Below are positions 25,644 to 52,022 of a stretch of DNA of 64,000 nucleotides, one piece after another. The first letter of the stretch is position 1. The number at the start of each line of letters is the position of its first letter. The stretch lies in NCBI RefSeq assembly GCF_036507355.1, contig NZ_AP027877.1; one strand, written 5' to 3'. The translations under genes and the position numbers were made by a program. The notes beneath the pieces are model-generated. The model searched no databases. It saw only the letters and a list, made by a program, of their open reading frames with translations, and was not told the origin of the DNA. The stretch comes from Escherichia coli (GTDB lineage Bacteria; Pseudomonadota; Gammaproteobacteria; Enterobacterales; Enterobacteriaceae).

Positions 25644-25730
25644 GCCCGGATGGTGGAATCGGTAGACACAAGGGATTTAAAATCCCTCGGCGTTCGCGCT
25701 GTGCGGGTTCAAGTCCCGCTCCGGGTACCA
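25644..25730 (+). tRNA. leuZ: tRNA-Leu (anticodon UAA), integration target of the island
   Basis: GCCCGGATGGTGGAATCGGTAGACACAAGGGATTTAAAATCCCTCGGCG...CCGGGTACCA, long variable arm. Confidence 0.95.
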
Positions 25731-25805
25731 TGGGAAACATCAGAATAATCAAAGCAATAAGCAGTGTCGTGAAACCACCTTCGGGTGGTTTTTTTGTGCA
25801 TGCAA
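25675..25805 (+). repeat. Left direct repeat (attL): 3' half of tRNA-Leu plus downstream terminator
   Basis: About 131 bp repeated with a few mismatches and a 2-bp indel at 51890-52022. Confidence 0.85.
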
Positions 25806-25969: not shown

Positions 25970-26709
25970 CTAGCCACCCTGAGTACAAAGTTGCTTAATT
26001 CGTGCAATCACCTCATCTCTGTACTTCTGGTGTCCGCGCATAGCCCTTGGATGGGCAATTCTGAAACAGATTGCATTACCTGTTTTGAACTCCCATAGCT
26101 TCCCCGGAATGACTGCAGAAGTCTCATAGCCGCCCAGCTCAGTAAGCACCTGTTTTATGATGTAGTCTGTTCTCCGGGCTCCAGATGCAAAGATGATGAA
26201 ATCAGGCTCAAGGTGTTTAATTTGTACCGCCAGCAGCTTCAGCGAGGCAATATAACTTCCTGCACTTCATTTTGAGGGCGATTGAGAGGGGTCAGTCCGT
26301 CGTAATCCCACGCCAGTAGATTGGCATACACGATAGCCTGAGGAGGGATATTAAGCTCCCGGGCCAGCCTGAAATGATACTGCGTGAAGCGGCTACGTGA
26401 TTTGAGGTTAGTGGTGCCATAATTTTGTACCGGAAGATGTTTCCTGTAACGATCTACAGCTTCTTCAACCACCTGCCCGATGGTGACGTCAGGTATAAGT
26501 CCCAACACCCGTGATATCGTATTCTTACCATTCAGAGTATTCCAGCCAGCGGTTTCACGTCCAACCAGCATGATTTTTACCGGTGAGTGCCAGTATTCTT
26601 CAAAGGGCACGGGTAAAAAGACGCCTGAGTATTTATCCTCATTCAGGTTAAATGACTGGGCGTCAACTTCCTGCAATATCCGTTTGTACGCGTCTAATAG
26701 CTTTTCCAT
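25970..26709 (-). pseudogene. Uracil-DNA glycosylase-like gene (family-4-like), apparently split by a frameshift near 26239-26260
   Basis: ORF 26239-26709 (...KIMLVGRETAGWN...) continues in another frame to 25970 (...FRIAHPRAMRGHQKYRDEV...), resembling UDG motif A and the C-terminal HPS-type motif B. Confidence 0.45.
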
Positions 26710-26789: not shown

Positions 26790-27989
26790 ATGCAAAAATC
26801 CTTCCGGTTTACCAATGCATCCATCAAAGCCCTACCTGCAAATACTGATACCCGCTCTACAGAGCTTGAGGTATCTGATACCGAAGTTATTGGACTCAAG
26901 TGCCTCTCAGGTCGAACAGGCAACAAGCGCTTCCTTCTGCGGTATACATTCCACGGTACCAAAAAAAGTATCAGTATTGGCAGATTTCCTGAAATTGATG
27001 TGGGAACAGCCCGGCAAATAGCCCGTCGTCACAAAGAAGCGATTGCGCTGGGAAATGACCCTAAAGCGGAGCGAGATAACTACCGCGCGATGCCAACACT
27101 TGGTGAGTTTTTCCATCAAACCTATGTTCCTTATATAAAGCGCCATAAAAAGTCATGGGATAAGGATGTTCAGCGTTTCACGCAATACATTGAACCTCGT
27201 CTGGGAAAGATACGTTACTGCGATCTCAGGGCCAGAGAGATACAACAGGTGCTGTTTGACATGCTGGAGGGGCGTATTCACGGGCAGCAATATGCGCCGT
27301 CTACCTGTAACAGAGCCCTTGCTATTCTGAAAACGATGGGGCGTTATGCGTTGCGACAGGATGTGCTGGAAAAGAATGAAGCCGATAAGATCCCTTTGCT
27401 GAAAGAGAATAATCAGCGGACGCGCTTTTTTGATGCTGATGAGATCAGGCGCATTCTTGACGCTGCTACCCAATATCCCAACAAAGCTGCCGGGGGATTG
27501 ATAGCCATGTTGTTGTTAACCGGTACACGCAAATCAGAAATGCTTAATGTCAGGCATGAACATATCGACCGGGCCAATCGTACTCTGTTCATTCCTTATA
27601 CAAAAAATGGTCGCAGTCGGACGGTATATCTAAGCGATGCCGCATTATCGATTATTGATGCTATCCCACGAGTTGGCAGTAATCCGTATCTGTTCGCCAT
27701 TAAGGATAATGGAAAACCGATATCGGAACCCCGATGGGCATATGAAAAAATACTGGCACAGTGCGGTATAGACAAGAATGAAGTCTGTTTTCACACCACA
27801 CGTCATTCTGTTGCCTCTTTACTGGTTTCGAGTGGTCAATTCAGCCTGTATGACGTTAAAGCCCAACTGGCGCATGCCAGTATTCAGAGTACAGAACGTT
27901 ACGCGAAATTAACACCGGAACGTATGCGTCAGACAGGGCAGGGAGTGACTGACCTGCTTCTGAATACTGCGGCTACGAAGCAGATGTGA
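26790..27989 (+). CDS. Tyrosine recombinase / integrase (P4-like arm domain)
   Basis: N-terminal arm-binding region, catalytic HTTRHSVAS (HxxR) and TERYAKL (Tyr); start taken at MQKSFRF. Confidence 0.85.
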   Translation: MQKSFRFTNASIKALPANTDTRSTELEVSDTEVIGLKCLSGRTGNKRFLLRYTFHGTKKSISIGRFPEIDVGTARQIARRHKEAIALGNDPKAERDNYRAMPTLGEFFHQTYVPYIKRHKKSWDKDVQRFTQYIEPRLGKIRYCDLRAREIQQVLFDMLEGRIHGQQYAPSTCNRALAILKTMGRYALRQDVLEKNEADKIPLLKENNQRTRFFDADEIRRILDAATQYPNKAAGGLIAMLLLTGTRKSEMLNVRHEHIDRANRTLFIPYTKNGRSRTVYLSDAALSIIDAIPRVGSNPYLFAIKDNGKPISEPRWAYEKILAQCGIDKNEVCFHTTRHSVASLLVSSGQFSLYDVKAQLAHASIQSTERYAKLTPERMRQTGQGVTDLLLNTAATKQM

Positions 27990-30848: not shown

Positions 30849-31244
30849 GTGATTGTCTGCGCTGAAATGGACGAACAGCGGGGTTACGTCGGCGCTAAAT
30901 CACGCCAGCGCTGGTTGTTTTACGCGTATGACAGGATTCGGAGGACGGTTGTGGCGCACGTATTCGGTGAACGCACTCTGGCCACACTGGAGCGTCTTCT
31001 GAGCCTGCTGTCGGCCTTTGAGGTCGTGGTATGGATGACGGATGGCTGGCCGCTGTATGAATCCCGCCTGAAGGGAAAGCTGCACGTTATCAGCAAGCGT
31101 TACACTCAGCGCATTGAGCGACATAATCTGAATCTGAGACAACATCTGGCAAGGCTGGGACGGAAGTCACTGTCGTTCTCAAAATCGGTGGAGCTGCATG
31201 ACAAGGTCATCGGGCATTATCTGAACATAAAACACTATCAGTAA
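30849..31244 (+). CDS. insB: IS1 InsB (transposase part; InsAB' made by frameshift)
   Basis: ...[47 protein letters not shown]... Confidence 0.9.
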
Positions 31245-31435
31245 GTTGGAGTCATTACCTGTTTTTGCTGCATATTTGGCCATGCACTTTTGCCATCAAG
31301 TCAGAGAGACAGGGGCACCGTAAGAGACGAAGGTTGCTGCCTGTGATGAGAGGTTATCAGCAATTACAATGGTCACTAATATTTACATAATGTCGGAGAA
31401 CATCATTTTAGTTGAAATAATATAAAGGCGGTTCT

Positions 31436-31762
31436 ATGTATTTACATATCAGAAAGTATCAACTCGTAAATGCGAGATGGCGTGATATCATTGATTTGAC
31501 GGATTATGAAGAAACAATCAAGCAGGTTGTGAGTACATTATTTGGAAATGATTTTATTGAGGTCAGAGTTGAAACGCGTTGTTTTATTCTGACAGTAAAC
31601 AGTACAAGCAGTAAAATACCACACGGCATACTGGTGAATATGGGGAAAAGGCTGGCGGCGAATCTCCAGAGTATCACCTGTCATGCCATGCGGATCTATC
31701 ATGTAAATGGCCATCCTGACGCGCGGCAGTTATTTCACTGTTTTGATGCCGATTGCCTGTGA
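31436..31762 (+). CDS. Hypothetical protein (108 aa)
   Basis: ORF between IS1 and the convergent polymerase gene; no family recognised. Confidence 0.4.
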   Translation: MYLHIRKYQLVNARWRDIIDLTDYEETIKQVVSTLFGNDFIEVRVETRCFILTVNSTSSKIPHGILVNMGKRLAANLQSITCHAMRIYHVNGHPDARQLFHCFDADCL

Positions 31763-31810: not shown

Positions 31811-34474
31811 TCAGACTGGAAGACAGAATGTCGGATATTTACGGGCTATGATATCCATCAGTGACTTCATTCGCGGTGTTACAGAACTAAATTTCATTTG
31901 GGGTATTTTTGCTCTTACCGCATTTTTTACATCAGTCACCGTTACTGAATAGCCTTCTGACGTCAGCCATTCAGCAACCTCTTTACAGGAATAACTTTTT
32001 TTATCTTTCAGCATCAGCCCCCATTGGCACTGAGTCAGCGCCCGGAGAAATAGTCTGACTAAAATATCATCACTACGTTTGCTTCCGACTTTTAGTTTCA
32101 TATCAGAAAACACCGTCCGGCAATAGAGAAAATCACACCAGTCATCCCAGTCAGCCAGGGTCTTCAGTGTATGCGTTTGCCGCCAGTCGTCGAAAAGGGA
32201 GCGTTGCTGCAGAGCCTCTTCCATATTATCCCACGGGCGGGAAAACATCAGTAGATGCCCTTCATTCATGGCGGGCCGTACGGGCTGGCGTTTGAAATCG
32301 AATTCCAGATTAAGACGGATATCCTGTTCCCGGGATACCAGATCGCTTTCCGAGAGCCACATCTCACGCGTTGATATCAACGTACTTCGGGATAACGTCT
32401 GACCGGGTAAACGATTAAGGTAAAGATCTACCATATAGTCGTTATAGTCACTGCGTGGAATATCGGCAGGAGGTTTGACGCCAGCCCTGGCATGAACAAC
32501 AGGTTTTCCCTGAATCGCTTTATAGGTTAACTGCCCCCGGGTTTTCATGGCGATAAGCTGGCTGACCTCATGCTTACATGTCAACATTGATGAACCCGGA
32601 TCAACAATATCGCACAGCGACTGGAAGCGGGAAGACAGTGGACCGCTCATGTTTATCTTGTCAAGTGGGCAATTTGTCAAAAAACCATCGGTTGTGACGC
32701 TGACAACCGATGAATCAGAAGGCAAAGCATTCATGAGTTCCCCGACAACGGCGCGGATAAATCCCGTCACATGCGCAGCAAAGAATGGCTGAGTAACCGA
32801 TGATGGTGGGAGGGATCTGTTTAATCCACGGGCAGTATCAAAGGCGGTTTTGGCGCGAAGGCCCTGAGCAAGTTTGCCATAAAGCGAGTTGCCAATTTCT
32901 TTCCAGAATTTCTCCTCCAAAGAACCCTTAATATGGCGATTACGGTTCTCACGGACCTGTTGAACAAAGGGAAGAAACACCGATGTTGATTCGCTGTTAT
33001 GTGGGGAGGTGTCACAGATCCAGGGGACGATGATCCCATTATGGATCGTCATCTCTGCCCCGAGCGACAGAGCAAGTTCGATTTCAGGTGCCGTTGCCCA
33101 TGATTCGCCACTTAATGGAAAGAATAACCCATATTGATCGGTCCGAACCGGCAGGCTGGGATAGGGAACTGATTCCGGGAACCGAAATGTGACAAGCGCA
33201 AATCCCATCACATGCCCACAGTAATCGTCCGGATTTTTACTGAGGCGGATGTTTCCGTAATCGGGTATGAGGATATCTAATAGCCCGGTGGTATACGCTC
33301 CAGCCAGATCGTAGTCATACCAGTGATCAGACGGTGTAACCCCCATCATAAAACACTCATTGCGTCCGCCGTGGTAACAGTTGATCGGGAACGTTTCAAA
33401 CAACTCTCTTGAAGGAACACTGGCGGGGTTTTTAATCGTCCGGAATGCCTGTTTCTCCGTGAGCCAGAGTTCACGGGTTTTAATGTGTGTCCCAAGGCAG
33501 ACTTCAGGAGACATATTGTTTTCTTTAAGTGTTTTGGTGAACCGTGAAACTGCCATCGCCCCGATGGTGGCGGGGACACGATCAATCATCAGCTCCCGGG
33601 CGCAAAAATTGCGAACCTGTAAAGCATAACGAACCGCAATCTCGGCATCCCGCAGAGCATAGGCTTCAAACCCTGCTCTGTCGCCCAGAAGATATTCACG
33701 CATATTGGTTATGGAATAAGGTGCAGGAATGGTGAGTTTGGGAAGACCCAGTAATTCACCACATTCAGCCAGACCCATACCCCCGGGAGTGATAAGCAGT
33801 GTATCGATGAAAGCTACGTTACTGCAACGCGGAGGGGAAGTTCGTTTGTCAAACATTATCTGTTCAGTCTTTACGCGACGTTCCTGCTGTTCATCAAAAT
33901 CGATACCGTAACGATTTTTGAAGCTGCTGACAGTACCGCGTATTCCTTTCAGAAGAATTTTGTAGTCTGACCAGAAATTGGCAAAGGAGGCGATATCCGC
34001 ACGAATGAAATGCGCATATATATTAATAATACCGGGCCATTTTGTAATCACACCCGTTTCAAGAAGCGGTGTAATCGTTTGACAGAGAAATTCCTTAAAA
34101 GACAGTCGGGATTTTTTCTGTGAGTCAGGTGGATAGATAATGTTCGATATACCAGTGTTATCGGGTAAGACGACATAACTCTGATATGACAGAATATCAT
34201 TCTGTTGTGTTTCAGGATTGAAAACATATTCGGTATCAAAACCGATATGGAGTGTCAGGTCACTTGAAATAACAGATACTTTTTTTGATGCAGGTGGTAT
34301 CACAGGATAATCATCAAGCGTTTTAGGTCTTTTAAGATTGAGCGCTGGCTCTGAAGTCACGGACTGATACCCCGAGGCGGCAGCGAGGATATCCTGCAAA
34401 TTATGGCTCATAGTTAACTCCGAAAAAATGCCGGGAGCTGTGTCCCGGCATAAAGAATCAAGATTTAATAACAT
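31811..34474 (-). CDS. Family-B DNA polymerase of the primer-independent PolB (piPolB) type
   Basis: Exo I FDTEY, motif B KEIGNSLYG (KxxxNSxYG), motif C-like VTTDG, and KTRG in AMKTRGQLTY in place of the KxY motif; 887 aa. Confidence 0.85.
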   Translation of the reverse strand: MLLNLDSLCRDTAPGIFSELTMSHNLQDILAAASGYQSVTSEPALNLKRPKTLDDYPVIPPASKKVSVISSDLTLHIGFDTEYVFNPETQQNDILSYQSYVVLPDNTGISNIIYPPDSQKKSRLSFKEFLCQTITPLLETGVITKWPGIINIYAHFIRADIASFANFWSDYKILLKGIRGTVSSFKNRYGIDFDEQQERRVKTEQIMFDKRTSPPRCSNVAFIDTLLITPGGMGLAECGELLGLPKLTIPAPYSITNMREYLLGDRAGFEAYALRDAEIAVRYALQVRNFCARELMIDRVPATIGAMAVSRFTKTLKENNMSPEVCLGTHIKTRELWLTEKQAFRTIKNPASVPSRELFETFPINCYHGGRNECFMMGVTPSDHWYDYDLAGAYTTGLLDILIPDYGNIRLSKNPDDYCGHVMGFALVTFRFPESVPYPSLPVRTDQYGLFFPLSGESWATAPEIELALSLGAEMTIHNGIIVPWICDTSPHNSESTSVFLPFVQQVRENRNRHIKGSLEEKFWKEIGNSLYGKLAQGLRAKTAFDTARGLNRSLPPSSVTQPFFAAHVTGFIRAVVGELMNALPSDSSVVSVTTDGFLTNCPLDKINMSGPLSSRFQSLCDIVDPGSSMLTCKHEVSQLIAMKTRGQLTYKAIQGKPVVHARAGVKPPADIPRSDYNDYMVDLYLNRLPGQTLSRSTLISTREMWLSESDLVSREQDIRLNLEFDFKRQPVRPAMNEGHLLMFSRPWDNMEEALQQRSLFDDWRQTHTLKTLADWDDWCDFLYCRTVFSDMKLKVGSKRSDDILVRLFLRALTQCQWGLMLKDKKSYSCKEVAEWLTSEGYSVTVTDVKNAVRAKIPQMKFSSVTPRMKSLMDIIARKYPTFCLPV

Positions 34475-35096
34475 TTACTACAGATTTGAAAATATCGGTT
34501 TTGCGTGATTCATCATCTACATGGATAAAGGAAACGAGTTTCCTGCCTGCTTTAATCAGGATACCGCGTTGCGTCTTTTCCACAGACGGGGTAACGTGTG
34601 CAGATAACAGACAATGTTCATGTAAATGAAGAAACTTTTTTGAGGCGTAGCCGCCATGTAATCGGGCTTGAATGTCAAGATACATATCATCAAGAGAACC
34701 GGGTTCTCCTGATTCACTCAATACCGGATAACCCTTCTTATCAAAGAGGTTAAGGATAGATTTACTATCATGTTCGAACAGGGTAACACCGTAAATGTAT
34801 TTCATTCGAAAGGTGAGGGAATCGGTGGTGTAGACCTCCTCCTGACGATTGAAATTTTTGAGACGCCTGGCTAATTCATTAAAAACAGCACGAGCAGTAG
34901 CCGTGTCCTGCAGGGTGTAGGTATAAAGTACGAAGCCATCTGTGCCGATGAGCTTTACTAAGTTGTCCATAATCGTGATAGCGAGAACTAATGCAAAGGA
35001 TAGATATTTTTCATCGTTGTCTACAGCTGTGTTTGCTGCTTCAGGAAGAATGTTCAGTGCATTATTAGCATTATTTGCTGTGTTCTTAGTAACCAT
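34458..35096 (-). CDS. Hypothetical protein (212 aa) co-transcribed upstream of the polymerase
   Basis: Overlaps the polymerase start by 17 nt and the AlpA-like gene stop by 11 nt. Confidence 0.55.
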   Translation of the reverse strand: MVTKNTANNANNALNILPEAANTAVDNDEKYLSFALVLAITIMDNLVKLIGTDGFVLYTYTLQDTATARAVFNELARRLKNFNRQEEVYTTDSLTFRMKYIYGVTLFEHDSKSILNLFDKKGYPVLSESGEPGSLDDMYLDIQARLHGGYASKKFLHLHEHCLLSAHVTPSVEKTQRGILIKAGRKLVSFIHVDDESRKTDIFKSVVNVIKS

Positions 35097-43295: not shown

Positions 43296-46200
43296 ATGAT
43301 GAACCAGACGTACACGCCTAAATTCCAGGAAGAATACAGCGCCAAAATTCCGGCACTGACGTTACTGACCAGCCTCGGCTGGACGTTTTTATCTCCGAAA
43401 CAGATTATGGATTACCGGGGCTATAAACAGGATGAGGTGGTGCTGCGTCCGGTTCTGCGTGAAGAGCTGTCGAAGCGTTCCTTTATGGCGGGTGGCAAAA
43501 CCTGCCAGTTATCGGAAAAAGCACTGGATAACCTGATATCACAGGTCTGTTCTCCGGCGCTGAATGAAGGGCTGCTCAAAGCCAATGAACGGATGTATAA
43601 CCATCTGCTCTACGGTATCGCCGTCACGGAGTTTGTCGATGGCAAGAAGGTGAACCCCACCATTGCGCTGATCGACTGGGAACATCCGGAAAGTAACCAG
43701 TTCCATTTTACCGAAGAATTTACGGTATTGCGGTCAGGCGGTGTCGAAACCCGCAGGCCGGATATTGTGTGTTTTGTGAATGGTATCCCGCTGGCCGTCA
43801 TTGAAGCGAAAAGCCCGGCGGGTCACGGCAAGAAAGGGCCAACCATTGACGAAGGGATATCCCAGAGTATCCGCAATCAGCTCAACGACGAAATCCCGCA
43901 GCTGTTTGCTTACAGCCAGATATTACTGTCGATTAACGGGCATGACGGGCGCTACGGTACCTGTCATACACCAATGAAATTCTGGGCGGCATGGCGCGAA
44001 GAAGATATTACTTACGCGCAGATGTATGCGCTGCGCAACCATAAGTTATCGACTGAACAAATTCATGCGTTGTTTGATGATCGTCCTTCAGTCGATCTCA
44101 AATGGTATCAACAGTTAATCGATGGGGGGGAACTGGCAGTCAGCGGGCAGGATAAGCTGCTCATCAGTCTGCTTTCACCGGAACGTCTGCTGGAGATGAC
44201 CCGCTTCTTCACCCTGTTTGATAAAAAAACCGGAAAAATTGTTGCCCGCTATCAGCAGGTGTTCGGTATTAAAAGACTGCTGGAACGCATCAGTACCCGC
44301 AGACCAGACGGGGGCAGGGAAGGTGGGGTGATCTGGCATACCACGGGGTCAGGTAAATCTTACACCATGGTATTCCTCAGCAAGGCGCTGATTCTTCATG
44401 ACAGCCTGAAGCAGTGTCGTATTGTGGTGGTGACGGACCGCGTGGACCTTGAAGGGCAGCTCAGCGGCACTTTTGTCTCTGGTGGCGAACTGGCAGGGAA
44501 GGATGATAAGGCCAAAGCGATGGCAACCTCAGGTCAGAAGCTGGCACAGCAGATTGGCTCTGGTAAAGAACGTATAATCTTTACCCTTATCCAGAAATTT
44601 AACTCAGCGACAAAATTGCCTGAATGCGTCAACACCAGCCCCGACATCATCGTTCTGATTGATGAAGGACACCGTAGCCAGGGTGGTGAGAACCATGTGC
44701 GAATGAAACTGGCACTGCCGAACGCCGCCTTTGTGGCATTTACTGGTACGCCATTGCTAAAAGAAGATAAGACCACCAATAAATTCGGGCCGATTGTCCA
44801 CGCTTATACCATGCAGCGAGCGGTAGAAGATAAAGCCGTTACACCTTTGCTGTATGAAGAACGTATTCCCGACCTTGAGGTTAACGATCGGGCAATAGAT
44901 GCCTGGTTTGATCGTATTACCGATGGGTTAAGCGAAGCGCAAAAAGCCGACCTTAAGCGTAAATATGCCCGTAAAGGTGAGGTTTATAGTGCAGATGATC
45001 GCATCCGTCTGATCGCACTCGATATCGCCACGCACTTCTCGAAGAATATTGATGAGGGGCTGAAAGGCCAGCTTGCCTGCGACAGCAAGATTTCCGCCAT
45101 CAAATATAAAAAGTATCTTGATGAAGCCGGGTTGTTTGAGTCAGCAGTAGTTATCAGCCCGCCGGATACCCGGGAAGGGAATACCGAAGTGGATGAAAGC
45201 AAACTGCCGGAAGTGACGAAATGGTGGAAGGATAATGTCGGCACGCAGGATGAGTCTGTGTATACCCGTAATATCATCAGTCGTTTCGATACCGATGAGA
45301 AGCTCAAATTGCTGATAGTCGTTGATAAACTGCTCACCGGGTTTGATGAGCCGAAGAATACCGTGCTGTATATCGACAAGCCGCTTAAGTCCCACAACCT
45401 TATCCAGGCGATTGCGCGGGTGAACCGACTGCATCCACTAAAAAAGTTCGGTCTGCTGATTGATTATCGCGGTATTCTGGCTGAGCTGGACACGACTATC
45501 GGCAAATATCAGGACCTCGCCTCCCGAACTCAGGGCGGATACGATATCAAAGATATTGACGGGCTGTACAGCGCCATGAGCTCTGAATACAAGCGCCTGC
45601 CGCATCTGTATAACCAGCTGTGGGCCATATTTGCCGGTGTTAAAAACAAAAATGATACTGAGCAGTTACGTGCGGTACTGGTGCCTAAAATGGAAGAACG
45701 TGACGGAGAGATGGTCGATATCCATCAGAAAACCCGTGATGATTTCTTCGAGGCGTTAACGGCCTTTGCCGGATGCCTGAAAGTGGCACTGCAGTCCGCT
45801 ACCTTCTTCACCGACAAGAGCTTTACGGAACAAGACCGAAATCTCTATAAAGAAACCGTAAAACAGATGTCCAGCCTGCGCCAGTGGGCGATGCAGGTAA
45901 GTGGAGAGCAGGTCAATTATGACGACTACGCTGAGCAGGTGAAAAAACTGCTGGATAAGCATGTCACCGGCGTTGAGGTTCGTGAACCGGATGGCGTGTA
46001 TGAAGTCGGTAAAATGGGCAAGAGCGAAAAGCCCGAAGAGTGGGACAACAATAAAACCCGCAATGAAACCGACATCATTAAAACCCGCGTGACGAAGATG
46101 ATTGAGCAGGAATTGCGTGATGACCCGTATGCTCAGGAGGCATTTTCAAAACTCCTGCGTATGGCTATCGAAGAGGCTGAAAAACTGTTTGACCATCCGC

Positions 46201-46583
46201 TGAAACAGTACCTTTTGTTCCGTGAATTTGAAGAACAGGTTGAAGCCCGTAAGCTCAGCGATATCCCGGATGCACTGGCGGTAAACAAGCATGCTCAGGC
46301 GTATTACGGTGTATTTAAAAAAGAGCTACCTGAGGTTTTTGCGGTAAACGACGTTCAGGTGCAGGATAAGTGGACCAAGCTGGCTTTTGAAGTGGACAAC
46401 ATTATCGTCAAAGCGGTGGCAGAAAACTCCCTGAACCCCCAGGACATTGAGAAAGTCGTTAAGACAAGTCTGCTACCACTGCTGTTTACGGCCTGCCGGG
46501 AAATTGGTGCCGGAATGAATCAGGTTAACCGTATTGTGGAAACCATCATCCAGATACTGCGCGTTGGTTTGATGAAATCATGA
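43296..46583 (+). CDS. hsdR: Type I restriction endonuclease subunit HsdR
   Basis: 1095 aa; Walker A TGSGKSYT and DEAH-like box DEGHRS. Confidence 0.92.
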   Translation: MMNQTYTPKFQEEYSAKIPALTLLTSLGWTFLSPKQIMDYRGYKQDEVVLRPVLREELSKRSFMAGGKTCQLSEKALDNLISQVCSPALNEGLLKANERMYNHLLYGIAVTEFVDGKKVNPTIALIDWEHPESNQFHFTEEFTVLRSGGVETRRPDIVCFVNGIPLAVIEAKSPAGHGKKGPTIDEGISQSIRNQLNDEIPQLFAYSQILLSINGHDGRYGTCHTPMKFWAAWREEDITYAQMYALRNHKLSTEQIHALFDDRPSVDLKWYQQLIDGGELAVSGQDKLLISLLSPERLLEMTRFFTLFDKKTGKIVARYQQVFGIKRLLERISTRRPDGGREGGVIWHTTGSGKSYTMVFLSKALILHDSLKQCRIVVVTDRVDLEGQLSGTFVSGGELAGKDDKAKAMATSGQKLAQQIGSGKERIIFTLIQKFNSATKLPECVNTSPDIIVLIDEGHRSQGGENHVRMKLALPNAAFVAFTGTPLLKEDKTTNKFGPIVHAYTMQRAVEDKAVTPLLYEERIPDLEVNDRAIDAWFDRITDGLSEAQKADLKRKYARKGEVYSADDRIRLIALDIATHFSKNIDEGLKGQLACDSKISAIKYKKYLDEAGLFESAVVISPPDTREGNTEVDESKLPEVTKWWKDNVGTQDESVYTRNIISRFDTDEKLKLLIVVDKLLTGFDEPKNTVLYIDKPLKSHNLIQAIARVNRLHPLKKFGLLIDYRGILAELDTTIGKYQDLASRTQGGYDIKDIDGLYSAMSSEYKRLPHLYNQLWAIFAGVKNKNDTEQLRAVLVPKMEERDGEMVDIHQKTRDDFFEALTAFAGCLKVALQSATFFTDKSFTEQDRNLYKETVKQMSSLRQWAMQVSGEQVNYDDYAEQVKKLLDKHVTGVEVREPDGVYEVGKMGKSEKPEEWDNNKTRNETDIIKTRVTKMIEQELRDDPYAQEAFSKLLRMAIEEAEKLFDHPLKQYLLFREFEEQVEARKLSDIPDALAVNKHAQAYYGVFKKELPEVFAVNDVQVQDKWTKLAFEVDNIIVKAVAENSLNPQDIEKVVKTSLLPLLFTACREIGAGMNQVNRIVETIIQILRVGLMKS

Positions 46584-47335
46584 GTGAAAAAGAATCGCCA
46601 TCAATGAAAGCGTTACGCATTGTCTATGGTGATGATGTCATCACCGTACAGTGTGTTCCGCGTCAGGTCGTAAAGGGCAGGGTGCTCATCAAGGTTTATC
46701 CGGACTGCCGGGTTGTGGCCTCTGTACCGCCTGAAACACCGGAGCACGAGGTATTGTCTGCGCTGAAAAAAAGAGGGCGCTGGATATACCAGCAACTGCG
46801 TGATTTCAGGGAGCAACAGACACACATTGTTCCGCGTCAGTATGTCAGCGGAGAAAGCCATTATTATCTCGGTAAGCAATATCAGTTGAAAGTGACAGAA
46901 GACGCTACTGTGCCGCAACGAGTGAAAATGTTGCGTGGGCGTCTGGAAGTGACTGTCAGACACAAATCGGCAGAAAAGATTAAAGCCTTGCTGGCTGAAT
47001 GGTATCGGGAACGTGCCAGAGATGTTTTTCAGCGCAGGCTTGATTTACTGATTCCGCAGACCCTTTGGGTCAGTGAGCGTCCTCCGATACGTCTGCGGGC
47101 GATGCAAACGCAATGGGGCAACTGTTCAGCAAAAGGCTGTCTGACCCTGAATCCATGGCTGGTTAAGGCATCCTCAGAATGTATCGATTATGTTTTGCTA
47201 CATGAGTTATGCCATGTGGCTGAGCACAACCACAGCGAGGAGTTTTACCGTCTGATGGGGCAGGTTATGCCTGGGTGGGAAAAGGTCAAGAAACGACTGG
47301 ATGGGATGGCTGGGATGTTGTTGGCTGATATGTAA
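46580..47335 (+). CDS. HExxH zinc metallopeptidase (M48/YgjP-like) after hsdR
   Basis: HELCH motif; ATGA overlap with the hsdR stop. Confidence 0.7.
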   Translation: MSEKESPSMKALRIVYGDDVITVQCVPRQVVKGRVLIKVYPDCRVVASVPPETPEHEVLSALKKRGRWIYQQLRDFREQQTHIVPRQYVSGESHYYLGKQYQLKVTEDATVPQRVKMLRGRLEVTVRHKSAEKIKALLAEWYRERARDVFQRRLDLLIPQTLWVSERPPIRLRAMQTQWGNCSAKGCLTLNPWLVKASSECIDYVLLHELCHVAEHNHSEEFYRLMGQVMPGWEKVKKRLDGMAGMLLADM

Positions 47336-47393
47336 CTTATCAATATGAGTTCTTAAGGGTTTGGTCAGTCTCGTTAATGTAGGGAGTATAATA

Positions 47394-49232
47394 ATGAGTA
47401 AGTTAGATAATAAAATTGAAGCACGCCATCGTAATTTGTTTGATGTTCTAAATGCGCAAAAATATACCGTTGATTACTTTCAGCGCGAGTATAGCTGGGG
47501 TGAGAAACATATTGAAGAGTTGGTTACAGACTTAACATCTGCGTTTCTCAATGAATACACCGTCGGTGATTCTCGGGAGCAGGGTGAAAACTACAATAAT
47601 TATTACTTAGGACCATTTGTTGTGAGTAGTAAAGATGGGAAACGGAGTATTATTGATGGTCAGCAACGACTGACTTCATTAACTTTATTTCTAATTTACC
47701 TCCATAACCTTCAGAAAGAACTTAAATATGAAGAGAAAATAGAATCAATGATTTTCTCCGAGTTACGTGGCAGCAAATCATTCAATATAGTAGTTGAAGA
47801 CAGAATACCTTGCATGGAAGCATTGTTTAATTTTGGTAGCTATAGTTTAGTTGATGGGGATGATGAGTCAACCCATAACATGGTGGAGAGATATCAGAAT
47901 ATCACAGATGCTTTTCCTGATGAATTAAAAGGTCAGGCTTTTCCTTTTTTTATCGACTGGCTTAAGTATAACGTTATTATGGTTGAGATAGTTGCCTATT
48001 CAGATGAAAACGCATATACCATCTTTGAGACTATGAATGACCGAGGATTAAATCTTACTCCGTCCGAAATGCTTAAAGGTTTTTTACTTTCACGCTTTCA
48101 TCAGGGAGATAAACGCCAAAAGGTAAATGAACTCTGGAAAAAAGCGATGATGGATTTAAAAAACTATGATAAAGATGAAGACCAACGTTTTTTCCAGTCA
48201 TGGTTGCGTGCTCAATATGCTGATACAATACGCCCGGGTAAAGCTGGTTCAAAAAATGAAGACTTTGAAAAAATAGGTACGCGTTTTCATAGCTGGGTTA
48301 GAGATAATCTTCAGGCGGTGGGATTGGACCCAGATAATGGTGAGACATTCGAACGATTTATACAAAAAAACTTTTTGTTTTATTTGAATGCCTATACACA
48401 AATACTGAATGCTGAGAGAGCATTAACGCACCAACTGGAATATGTATTTTATATCCACCATTGGGGTATTGCACCTACTTTAAGTTTCCCTTTGATGTTG
48501 GCTCCATTAAATGTAGGTGACAGTCCTGATGCTGTGATAGCCAAAATAAACCTGGTGGCGCGCTATATTGAAACATTTGTTGTTCGTCGTTCTGTTAATT
48601 TCCGAAAATTCTCTGCCAGTTCTATTCGTTACACAATGTACAGTCTTGTTAAAGAAATTCGTGGTAAAAGTATTGAAGAATTAAAAGATTTGTTATCTAA
48701 GAAGTTATCCGAAATGCCAGATACTTTTGCAGGAATGGAAGAGTTTCGTCTCCATGGTCAAAACTATCGTTTTGTGAAGTTTTTGCTTTCTCGTATAACT
48801 GCGTGGGTTGAGCAGCAAGCCGGAATGAGTACAACCTTCATTACATATTATCAGCCAGAACACGGTAAGCCATTTGAAGTCGAGCATATTTGGGCCGATA
48901 AATATGAACGTTACTCTGATGAGTTTGAACAAGAGCACGAATTTAACAATTACAGAAATCGCTTAGGTGATTTGGTTTTATTACCTAGAGGCTCAAACCA
49001 GTCATATGGTGATTTGTGTTACGATCAAAAGCAACCTCATTACATCAAAGAGAATCTCCTGGCTAAATCGTTATGCCCATTGGCATATATGAATAACCCT
49101 AATTTCAATCAGTTGAGAAATGTATTCGGATTGCCTTTCAAACCACATGATTCATTTAAAAAACAAGATGTCGATGAACGACAGTCTTTGTATAAAATAA
49201 TTTGTGAGAATATTTGGGACCATAATTTATAG
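47394..49232 (+). CDS. GmrSD-like DUF262/DUF1524 nuclease (type IV restriction-like)
   Basis: N-terminal DGQQR hallmark (IIDGQQRLTSL) and C-terminal His-Me-finger-like FEVEHIWAD; GGGAG RBS before ATG 47394. Confidence 0.7.
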   Translation: MSKLDNKIEARHRNLFDVLNAQKYTVDYFQREYSWGEKHIEELVTDLTSAFLNEYTVGDSREQGENYNNYYLGPFVVSSKDGKRSIIDGQQRLTSLTLFLIYLHNLQKELKYEEKIESMIFSELRGSKSFNIVVEDRIPCMEALFNFGSYSLVDGDDESTHNMVERYQNITDAFPDELKGQAFPFFIDWLKYNVIMVEIVAYSDENAYTIFETMNDRGLNLTPSEMLKGFLLSRFHQGDKRQKVNELWKKAMMDLKNYDKDEDQRFFQSWLRAQYADTIRPGKAGSKNEDFEKIGTRFHSWVRDNLQAVGLDPDNGETFERFIQKNFLFYLNAYTQILNAERALTHQLEYVFYIHHWGIAPTLSFPLMLAPLNVGDSPDAVIAKINLVARYIETFVVRRSVNFRKFSASSIRYTMYSLVKEIRGKSIEELKDLLSKKLSEMPDTFAGMEEFRLHGQNYRFVKFLLSRITAWVEQQAGMSTTFITYYQPEHGKPFEVEHIWADKYERYSDEFEQEHEFNNYRNRLGDLVLLPRGSNQSYGDLCYDQKQPHYIKENLLAKSLCPLAYMNNPNFNQLRNVFGLPFKPHDSFKKQDVDERQSLYKIICENIWDHNL

Positions 49233-49290
49233 CAAAGTTAGGGTGTTAATTAATCTGTAATGGCATCATGATTTTTAAAAGGAGGTTGAA

Positions 49291-50418
49291 TTGCGTTCTG
49301 AAACGTTTTTTGTCAAATTTATTGAACAACTGAAAGGTATTTCGGTTGAGGATGATGTTGAATTCAATTTTTTTGAATTGGGTGGTTCCGGATATCTCGA
49401 AAATCCAACTACGGATTTGATGGCTTTGTTTATGGGAGCCCAGAAAATGGTGCCGCCATGGTTGCTCAAAGCATTGCTATGTTGCCTGGATGATTCCCTC
49501 GATGTTGATGAAATTGATTTCACTTCTCTGGAGCTAATGAGAGAGGCCCGAACAGAAGATGGGAAATATATTGATATTCTTATCAGACATGATGAATTCA
49601 TTATAGGTATTGAGCATAAAGTTCTGGCTGATACATATAATCCTTTTCCCAGCTATGTAAGTCTCATTGATAGTTACGGCGGCAACAATCAAAAACTATT
49701 TCGCTGTATATTAAAGCCTGACGGTAACAGCGCTAAAGGCGTAGACGGTTGGCAACTGATCAATTATTCACTGCTGCTGGAAACCGCCATTCGACGTCTG
49801 GGGTTGGAGATGATGAATCAAGAGTTCAGCAAGTGGACTGTTTTTTATCAGGAGTTTTTAAGTCATCTTAAAAAATTGAGTGAGGTTAGTATGGATAAGG
49901 TATCTGATAAAAATGTGGAGTTTGTCACTGAAAATTTCTCAGCTTTGATAAAATCGGTTCAACTGCTGGAAATGTACCAAAATGCTATCACCGAGGAAGC
50001 TAAATCGGTTGTCTCAGAGGTATTGCCTGATATTCATATTGCAACAGGTATTAATAACTGGAAGGGTTACTATAAAGCAATTCATCTGATGCCGGGATGC
50101 TGGGGGCAAGGTAAAACAGGAATTACGTTAGTTTATCGCCCTTCAGAGGATGGACGAGATGAAGCTGAGTTCTACGTATATGGATGGATACATTCAGATG
50201 ATTACCCTGAAGTTAATGCACTAAAAGAAGAAATAAGAGTTGCTTTAAGTGCTGGAGATTTCATTCCAACAGCTAGCCCTGAGGACTATGAAGTATCAAT
50301 TACTGGGAAGGGGAAAGTGCTTGAACTGAGTTTTTGGGGGAATACGAGAAGCAAAAAAGATGCACTGGTTCTTCTTAAGGATATGACTAAGTGGATGGAC
50401 TCAAAAATAAGAACATAA
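49291..50418 (+). CDS. PD-(D/E)xK-type nuclease-fold protein (TTG start)
   Basis: Candidate catalytic core ...GKYIDILIRHDEFIIGIEHKV (D...ExK); AAGGAGG RBS. Confidence 0.55.
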   Translation: MRSETFFVKFIEQLKGISVEDDVEFNFFELGGSGYLENPTTDLMALFMGAQKMVPPWLLKALLCCLDDSLDVDEIDFTSLELMREARTEDGKYIDILIRHDEFIIGIEHKVLADTYNPFPSYVSLIDSYGGNNQKLFRCILKPDGNSAKGVDGWQLINYSLLLETAIRRLGLEMMNQEFSKWTVFYQEFLSHLKKLSEVSMDKVSDKNVEFVTENFSALIKSVQLLEMYQNAITEEAKSVVSEVLPDIHIATGINNWKGYYKAIHLMPGCWGQGKTGITLVYRPSEDGRDEAEFYVYGWIHSDDYPEVNALKEEIRVALSAGDFIPTASPEDYEVSITGKGKVLELSFWGNTRSKKDALVLLKDMTKWMDSKIRT

Positions 50419-50522
50419 AGTAATATGACTGAGTGATGACGATCTTTTTTAAATTGTGGATTATTAGGCTGGTAATTGAAGCGCCGAATAGACAGATATT
50501 GGAATAAAAGGAGAATATTCAA

Positions 50523-51704
50523 ATGATTTATCAGTGTGATACTTGCAGTAGAACGACTTTTGAGGTTAATTGTCCCTGGTGTAGTGGAGTTTCGCCTGTA
50601 AAAACGTCTGCATGGGGTTCAGCATCATCGACCGCACAAGCAATAGGCATACAACGTATGACACCATTGAATCCATCGTTTTATCCCGAATTTCAGTATC
50701 GTTCAAAGGGTGTTCTAAAAGATCTATTTGGGAAAAAGAAAGAGCAAACTCAGCTTAATCAATTGCTTGAAAATGTTCTCAAAAAATACTCCAGTTTAAA
50801 AGATCCATATTTTACTAACTTCATTTACACTTCCAGATTCTCACATAATAATAAATCGGAAGCAGATTACTCAACAGATAATGGTACATACTCCGAATTA
50901 CAACTTTTCCGTGAGGTGTTGGTCAGAAAAGGGTTCAATGAGCTTGAGCAGTTACCTGAGCTATTAGATAAATTACTCCTTACCACGTCATTTAACGCTC
51001 TTTATTATGGTTTCGCTAAGGAAGTTAAACGGCATATTAAATCCACACTTACTGAATCCTTGAAGTCATGGATTGAGGAAGCGGGTACCACTTTTAGGGC
51101 AGATCTTTCATTGTTTCTATTCTATATATGGAGCAATAAAATAGAGTTCTCATCAGTAGAGTTCAATGAAAAAGCGGAGGCTACGCCTGGTGTTCCTTTA
51201 GTTTCATTTGATGAAGTTAAAAAATACTTAGCTGTGTGCGAACATATTTATTTTGATATTCTGGTTGATAGATTAGCTACACGGCTCGAACATTTTAACC
51301 CTAACAAATTCGTCACCATGTATTTAGTTGATGCAATGGACGGTTTCCAGTTTGAAGATTTCCTTGTGGAAGTATTCCAGACTATGGGCTATGACGTCAA
51401 AGAAACCAAGAGAACGCAAGATCAGGGGGCAGATCTCTTCGTCACTCGATTTGGTAAGGATATGGTTATTCAGGCGAAAAATTATTCTGGTTCTGTAGGT
51501 AACTCGGCGGTGCAGCAGGTGATCTCTGCTAAAACATTCTATGGTTGTGATGAGGCGATGGTTGTGACTAATTCCTACTTCACACGCTCTGCCAAAGAAT
51601 TAGCTGAATCAGCCTTGGTACGTTTGATCGACAGGGATGAACTGCAAAAGTATCTGGATGATTACAATCAGAAGATAATTGAAGATTTCCAGTCAAACTC
51701 GTAA
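50523..51704 (+). CDS. Zinc-ribbon protein with C-terminal Mrr-like restriction endonuclease domain
   Basis: N-terminal CDTCS...CPWC; C-terminal ...GADLFVTRFGKDMVIQAKNYSGSVG... resembles the Mrr catalytic domain. Confidence 0.6.
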   Translation: MIYQCDTCSRTTFEVNCPWCSGVSPVKTSAWGSASSTAQAIGIQRMTPLNPSFYPEFQYRSKGVLKDLFGKKKEQTQLNQLLENVLKKYSSLKDPYFTNFIYTSRFSHNNKSEADYSTDNGTYSELQLFREVLVRKGFNELEQLPELLDKLLLTTSFNALYYGFAKEVKRHIKSTLTESLKSWIEEAGTTFRADLSLFLFYIWSNKIEFSSVEFNEKAEATPGVPLVSFDEVKKYLAVCEHIYFDILVDRLATRLEHFNPNKFVTMYLVDAMDGFQFEDFLVEVFQTMGYDVKETKRTQDQGADLFVTRFGKDMVIQAKNYSGSVGNSAVQQVISAKTFYGCDEAMVVTNSYFTRSAKELAESALVRLIDRDELQKYLDDYNQKIIEDFQSNS

Positions 51705-51889: not shown

Positions 51890-52022
51890 ATTTAAAATCC
51901 CTCGGCGTTCGCGCTGTGCGGGTTCAAGTCCCGCTCCGGGTACCATGGGAAAGATAAGAATAAAATCAAAGCAATAAGCAGTGTCGTGAAACCACCTTCG
52001 GGTGGTTTTTTTGTGCCTGCAA
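51890..52022 (+). repeat. Right direct repeat (attR): copy of tRNA-Leu 3' half plus terminator
   Basis: Matches 25675-25805 with a few mismatches and a 2-bp indel; begins inside the anticodon arm, so no complete tRNA here. Confidence 0.85.

Follow-up and report, generated by a model that had tools for sequence, protein, structure and literature searches.

A frameshifted uracil-DNA glycosylase-like gene in an Escherichia coli pipolin and the divergent protein family to which it belongs

An interrupted gene at the tRNA end of a pipolin

The window, a 64,000-nt stretch of contig NZ_AP027877.1 (GCF_036507355.1), is Escherichia coli chromosome. It carries uvrC, pgsA, tRNA-Gly, tRNA-Cys and tRNA-Leu(UAA), followed by an integrated element bounded by two att direct repeats (Table 1). 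The tRNA-proximal repeat overlaps the 3′ part of tRNA-Leu. The DNA polymerase of the element has the motifs KH at residues 613–614 and KTRG at 623 (PGAP numbering), matching the published residues K613/H614 of the E. coli primer-independent polymerase piPolB (PMC5695915). The piPolB motifs, the tyrosine recombinase and the att repeats at tRNA-Leu therefore identify the element as a pipolin. It is a typical E. coli pipolin. Besides the integrase, it encodes a further recombinase, together with several nucleases and a type I restriction-modification system. In the annotation of the identical pipolin of RM14721, an IS1 family transposase (programmed frameshift) has inserted at about 30855–31552, separating piPolB from a DUF2787 gene cluster.

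E. coli pipolins are known for a 'UDG' (uracil-DNA glycosylase) gene beside a XerC-like recombinase at the tRNA-Leu end, which has been used for phylogenies (PMC7385651; PMC11551731). An ORF of 212 aa on the minus strand (34458–35096), directly upstream of piPolB and 46 nt before its PGAP start, was considered as the true pipolin UDG. It was dropped, since it had no Pfam match and published descriptions have the UDG at the tRNA end. This ORF overlaps the longest piPolB ORF by 17 nt and has a conserved counterpart in RM14721, annotated 'hypothetical protein'. The gene studied here is the same gene in the same position as the UDG of E. coli pipolins (Flament-Simon et al. 2020, PMC7385651; Mateo-Caceres et al. 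2024, PMC11551731), but the window copy has a 1-nt deletion. Neither 'frameshift' nor 'pseudogene' occurs as a word in PMC7385651. The first-pass annotation had located the gene next to attL. An att repeat does adjoin the gene, but the tRNA-Leu end of the E. coli pipolin was named attR (PMC7385651). The longest ORF of the divergent integrase begins at ATG 26760, 50 nt off the start of the UDG-like gene, and the PGAP start is at 26790. The intergenic region of 50–80 nt must contain both promoters.

The UDG-like gene is split over two reading frames of the minus strand. Translation confirmed the 5′ ORF that had been described as ending at a TGA: it has 156 codons from ATG 26709 to TGA 26241–26239, and its 156-aa product is UniProt A0A2X1QCW9. 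This part retains beta-1, the motif-A-like GRETAGWNT (26562–26536, with the Gly50 codon at 26562–26560) and the invariant Asn130 (26322–26320). The VGRETAGWN reported earlier for the N-terminal part is present. The adjacent frame runs from 26266 to TAG 25972–25970 and stays open for about 88 codons beyond the TGA of the 5′ ORF. It encodes the peptide as first described, ...FRIAHPRAMRGHQKYRDEVIARIKQLCTQGG, also written ...LKLLAVQIKHLEPDFIIFASG...CFRIAHPRAMRGHQKYRDEVIARIKQLCTQGG. The third minus-strand frame has stops throughout. The proposal that both parts belong to one UDG-sized protein held, as a single indel joins them; the joined protein has 246 aa, not about 245.

Table 1. Features of the pipolin and of the UDG-like gene in the window, and the partner ORF in other contigs
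Feature	Position	Strand	Evidence and remarks
tRNA-Leu(UAA), pipolin integration site	25644..25730	+	ARAGORN; PGAP in identical genome RM14721
tRNA-proximal att direct repeat (attR)	25675..25805		~131 nt; 97–98% identical to 51890–52022
UDG-superfamily-like pseudogene, whole	25970..26709	-	740 nt; translations, alignment to intact alleles, PGAP label
3′ open frame	25970..26266	-	residues 155–246, His220-Pro221-Arg222 (26053–26045), C-terminal helix
5′ ORF	26239..26709	-	154 native residues + Pro-Arg + TGA
Frameshift site	26248..26249	-	one A absent between both bases; alignment column 473
Tyrosine integrase	26790..27989	+	divergent from UDG-like gene; PGAP start
piPolB, primer-independent family-B DNA polymerase	31811..34411	-	PGAP 'DNA polymerase'; weak PF03175 match
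Distal att direct repeat	51890..52022		far end of ~26.3-kb pipolin
109–113-aa partner ORF	L004 7672–8001; L007 7657–7986; L030 4766–5095; L032 7647–7988		

The deletion, its distribution and its age

The site of the frameshift was located by alignment to intact alleles from other pipolins, as the first-pass annotation had proposed. The alleles of ETEC1720 and HUE1 have 741 nt and encode the 246-aa protein WP_106661694.1 as an uninterrupted CDS. In comparison with them, the window has exactly one indel: an A is missing between 26249 (T) and 26248 (G), at codon 154/155. The intact site reads GTTATATTAGCC, the window GTTATATT-GCC; in a longer context, ...GTTATATTAGCCTCG... stands against ...GTTATATTGCCTCG... 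(GTTATATT-GCCTCG). The deletion-bearing form of the site is GTTATATTGCC, where base-retaining alleles have GTTATATTAGCC. Leu154 is preserved in the window allele (TTA to TTG), and Pro-Arg-stop then supplants the protein from Ala155-Ser156 onward. The deletion costs residues 155–246. Gone with them are the invariant His-Pro motif, the C-terminal helix, part of a long helix and the rest of the core-sheet strands. On identical sequence in RM14721, PGAP labels the gene as "hypothetical protein, frameshifted".

A megablast survey of 5,426 complete E. coli genomes detected the UDG-like gene in 531, and 16 genomes were 100% identical to the window over 881 nt. Alleles were counted in complete E. coli genomes by exact matches of a 61-nt probe centred on the frameshift site. 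The frameshift allele was present in 29 genomes. Intact alleles were much more common, with the HUE1-type 61-mer in 127 genomes and the ETEC1720-type in 11. Sources of the carriers listed are dog, human, sewage, chicken, pig, wild bird, frog, sediment and cave. When 60 records were drawn at regular intervals from the ranked 531 genomes, only the 4 closest rows had the 740-nt length. Identical piPolB genes occur in genomes with and without the deletion.

The first-pass annotation had left open whether the gene is a pseudogene or contains a sequencing or assembly indel. The latter would mean that the gene is really intact, and a 1-nt indel is indeed the commonest type of assembly error. Such an error is very unlikely here. 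The lost A stood between TT and G, outside any homopolymer, and the identical 61-nt allele recurs in the 29 complete genomes from varied hosts and sources, including the 16 with full identity over 881 nt. Strain GS04 retains the deletion alongside additional SNPs, and PGAP labels this copy as frameshifted, too; the allele has thus outlasted later divergence. The shared allele and the non-homopolymer site favour a real inherited pseudogene. Judged from these sequences, the missing A is very probably a real mutation and not an assembly artefact. We conclude that the deletion was probably inherited within one pipolin lineage.

A functional two-ORF arrangement, in which the ribosome undergoes a programmed −1 frameshift or two polypeptides are made from a split gene, is less probable still, to the point of being negligible. 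Both frames are open and undegraded as such a gene would have them, but the recency of the deletion accounts for this. The overlap of both frames lacks a slippery heptamer of the type X XXY YYZ, and programmed frameshifting was rejected for this reason. A separate second polypeptide would be short: translation of the 3′ part from its first in-frame start codon, a GTG, would yield only 59 aa. Orthologues with the same two-ORF arrangement would have refuted the first-pass reading; most of them consist of one ORF, and the frameshift allele is limited to the closest relatives. All in all, inactivation of a conserved pipolin UDG-like gene by a real single-nucleotide deletion at codon 154/155 can be stated with considerable confidence. 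A functional glycosylase can presumably not come from the window copy.

The intact gene is maintained by selection. Pairwise dN/dS values were calculated after Nei-Gojobori for eight intact alleles, the FORC_031 allele and the window. They were mostly 0.10–0.21, with 0.27–0.51 for a few pairs of low divergence and dS up to 0.79, which indicates purifying selection on the intact gene. Apart from the deletion, one synonymous change separates the window allele from that of HUE1. The inactivation appears to be recent, because the allele is otherwise a single synonymous change away from an intact one.

Other copies are disrupted in other ways. Strain F1267 has a UDG-like gene with a 13-nt deletion (L023 31–758), and the FORC_031 allele has no stop codon (L021 31–771). 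In about 10 of the 60 sampled rows, the 5′ end is truncated beside IS elements (e.g., L017 12001–12642). A separate frameshift leads to a 153-aa product representing 253 database members. The window gene is likely one among several independently disrupted E. coli copies. These independent disruptions show that the UDG-like gene is often lost in E. coli. Another disrupted form has a C-terminal frameshift yielding 284 aa.

Fold and relatives of the intact protein

Profile searches did not reveal the nature of the protein. The first-pass annotation had suggested an HMM search of the repaired protein with UDG profiles. The repaired or intact E. coli protein had no Pfam match even at E ≤ 10, no match in NCBIfam and PADLOC, and no UDG match in a profile search of PDB sequences. 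PHROGs contained only the unnamed family phrog_29550. The link to the UDG superfamily came only from structure and distant relatives. An AlphaFold2 model of the intact protein, calculated with 37 homologues, reached a pLDDT of 89.6 and a pTM of 0.89. In a Foldseek search of the PDB, all 35 matches at E ≤ 0.001 were UDG superfamily proteins. Among 35 distant relatives, PF03167 was the sole recurring Pfam family (2 at E ≤ 0.001, 17 at E ≤ 0.1). By its predicted fold, the intact 246-aa alpha/beta protein with a central parallel sheet is a divergent member of the UDG superfamily.

Homologues were found in 186 clusters by a word-indexed search and in 477 clusters at 50% identity by an exhaustive search. 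Nearly all have 240–260 aa, and they occur in Gammaproteobacteria and beyond. A few bear the automatic UniProt name "Uracil-DNA glycosylase-like domain-containing protein". Tyr8, Gly50, Glu52, Asn130, Ser156, Pro169, Phe174, Phe208, Arg217, His220 and Pro221 are invariant in an alignment of closer homologues (A2) and in an alignment of the wider family (A3). In the model, GRETAGW follows the strand 46–50, Asn130 closes the strand 126–130 (beta-2), and HPR is located after the last strand 213–218, ahead of the C-terminal helix. We take these positions to be motif A, the base-recognising asparagine and motif B of the UDG superfamily. The invariant Glu52, Asn130 and His220-Pro221 are then at canonical active-site locations of the model. 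Glycosylase activity is a prediction from the fold and the motif positions. The family may represent a clade that Pfam does not see, with about 477 clusters at 50% identity and the motifs GRETxGW, N and HPR.

The gene is not tied to piPolB. In complete E. coli genomes, piPolB was present in 295, in comparison to the 531 with the UDG-like gene. In the two loci examined, this excess is due to pipolin remnants and not to another element. In E. coli O145 RM12275-C1 (L016 7507–12741), for example, a pipolin remnant has an intact UDG-like gene. The integrase of this remnant is truncated, as is a frameshifted CDS that is probably piPolB, and a P4-like prophage lies between the UDG-like gene and the tRNA. 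No piPolB was seen near the homologues of Stutzerimonas, Marinobacter, Pseudoalteromonas, Proteus, Pectobacterium, Intestinirhabdus and Atlantibacter. Atlantibacter hermannii encodes an intact 256-aa homologue (L026 8001–8771) alone between eutC and the tRNA-Leu/pgsA/uvrC locus, with no integrase or piPolB within 8 kb, and thus resembles an element that survives as a remnant. A phage origin was rejected, as a tblastn search of 50,697 phage records did not find the UDG-like gene (0 matches).

Outside the Enterobacterales, the UDG-like gene has a companion. An ORF of 109–113 aa is located directly upstream in contigs of Stutzerimonas, Marinobacter, Pseudoalteromonas and marine Pseudomonas. In the loci examined there, it always precedes the UDG-like gene, with an overlap or a gap of ≤15 nt. 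Some homologues have the partner fused N-terminally to the UDG-like domain (P0123, P0121); the N-terminus of P0123 matched the partner with E = 6.5e-15 in a small database. The partner had no match in Pfam, NCBIfam or PADLOC. It was not found in the window or in the enterobacterial loci examined.

Neighbouring genes in Proteus, Pectobacterium and Intestinirhabdus encode Mrr-like and PD-(D/E)XK nucleases and type I restriction-modification systems. A DUF6361 protein and a helicase are neighbours in one locus, and an ADP-ribosyl glycohydrolase, WYL/BrxR regulators and Zorya genes (one locus) were also present beside homologues. In Pectobacterium (L013 8001–13219) and Intestinirhabdus (L028 8001–16738), only an att-like repeat derived from tRNA-Leu separates the UDG-like gene from the nuclease and type I restriction-modification genes. 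The proteins of the latter are 96–99% identical to the far-end cargo of the window (43296–51704). This arrangement is the junction expected of a circular or tandem form. It also shows that nearly identical cargo moves between genera.

Possible function and comparison with known glycosylases

The intact enzyme would act as a monofunctional DNA glycosylase that flips a pyrimidine, perhaps one with a phage-type modification, into its pocket and leaves an abasic site. It would be cargo of the island, serving defence or repair, and stand apart from the piPolB replication machinery. Alternatively, it may act in ordinary uracil repair or assist piPolB. Accessory UDG folds have precedents: the vaccinia D4 protein is an accessory of the E9 polymerase, and some phage family-A polymerases have UDG-like domains. 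Applied to the pipolin, the protein would be a UDG-fold accessory of the replicase without a repair or defence activity, and its loss would affect pipolin replication. This is improbable. The many piPolB-free contexts weaken an accessory role: homologues in the seven genera from Stutzerimonas to Atlantibacter are without piPolB nearby, the gene is more frequent in E. coli than piPolB, and it stays intact in pipolin remnants. The invariance of the residues at catalytic positions also speaks against the accessory role. A glycosylase carried as cargo is the preferred reading.

The pipolin UDG-like gene and the frameshifted label on identical RefSeq copies were already known, and the finding is an ordinary one. 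The window adds another example of decayed cargo on a mobile element, and this pipolin lineage is without a working copy of the UDG-like gene. In annotation, neither the 156-aa ORF nor the 59-aa ORF merits a gene call of its own. The intact family, with its UDG fold, purifying selection, retention in remnants and defence-type neighbourhoods, is a reasonable candidate for an antiviral DNA glycosylase. If the defence reading is true, the window shows a recently lost pipolin defence gene. Pipolins that share identical piPolB genes but differ in having the frameshift or the intact allele are near-matched natural pairs for testing this idea.

The first-pass annotation had seen a resemblance to family-4 UDGs. 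Membership of the UDG superfamily stands by fold, but the assignment to family 4 does not. The consensus of family-4 UDGs is GE(A/G)PG for motif A and HPS for motif B; the pipolin protein has GRETxGW and HPR instead. It shares 10–15% identity with family-4 UDGs (Thermotoga maritima 1L9G, Thermus thermophilus 1UI0) and with UdgX, is about 50 residues longer than these and is without their PF03167 match. Family-4 enzymes bind a 4Fe-4S cluster with four cysteines, whereas the pipolin protein has only Cys215 and Cys242. The invariance of Cys215 is confined to the closer homologues (A2), and no cysteine is invariant across A3. With two cysteines and none invariant in the wider family, the protein therefore lacks a 4Fe-4S cluster. 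Judged by motifs and cysteines, the pipolin protein is not a family-4 UDG.

The Brig enzymes are among the closest known parallels. Brig1 and Brig3, both of the UDG superfamily, are established as antiviral glycosylases and are each encoded beside an ADP-ribosyl glycohydrolase (PMC11078745; PMC13160076), and Brig2 is a further defence enzyme with a UDG fold (bioRxiv 10.1101/2025.10.29.685425). A direct relationship to Brig1 was rejected: hhalign of A2 and A3 against Brig1 (PMC11078745 supplement) gave probabilities of 0.3% and 0.2%, both below 1%. Among the entries seen in the shortened Brig2 tables, no accession number of the pipolin family occurred. Brig1 has a motif of the GLNPG type, unlike the GRETxGW of the pipolin family. 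The location in defence-type islands without piPolB, often with the 109-aa partner, suggests by analogy a Brig-like antiviral glycosylase. We tentatively consider that the intact family could be an uncharacterised clade of the UDG superfamily that, like Brig1–3, acts against modified-base phages, together with the 109-aa partner outside the Enterobacterales; this full reading is a possibility with less than even support. Like Brig1, Brig2 and Brig3, the pipolin family has a UDG-superfamily fold that sequence methods barely detect and is encoded in mobile or defence islands. Family homologues in L032–L034 adjoin an ADP-ribosyl glycohydrolase, as do Brig1 and Brig3.
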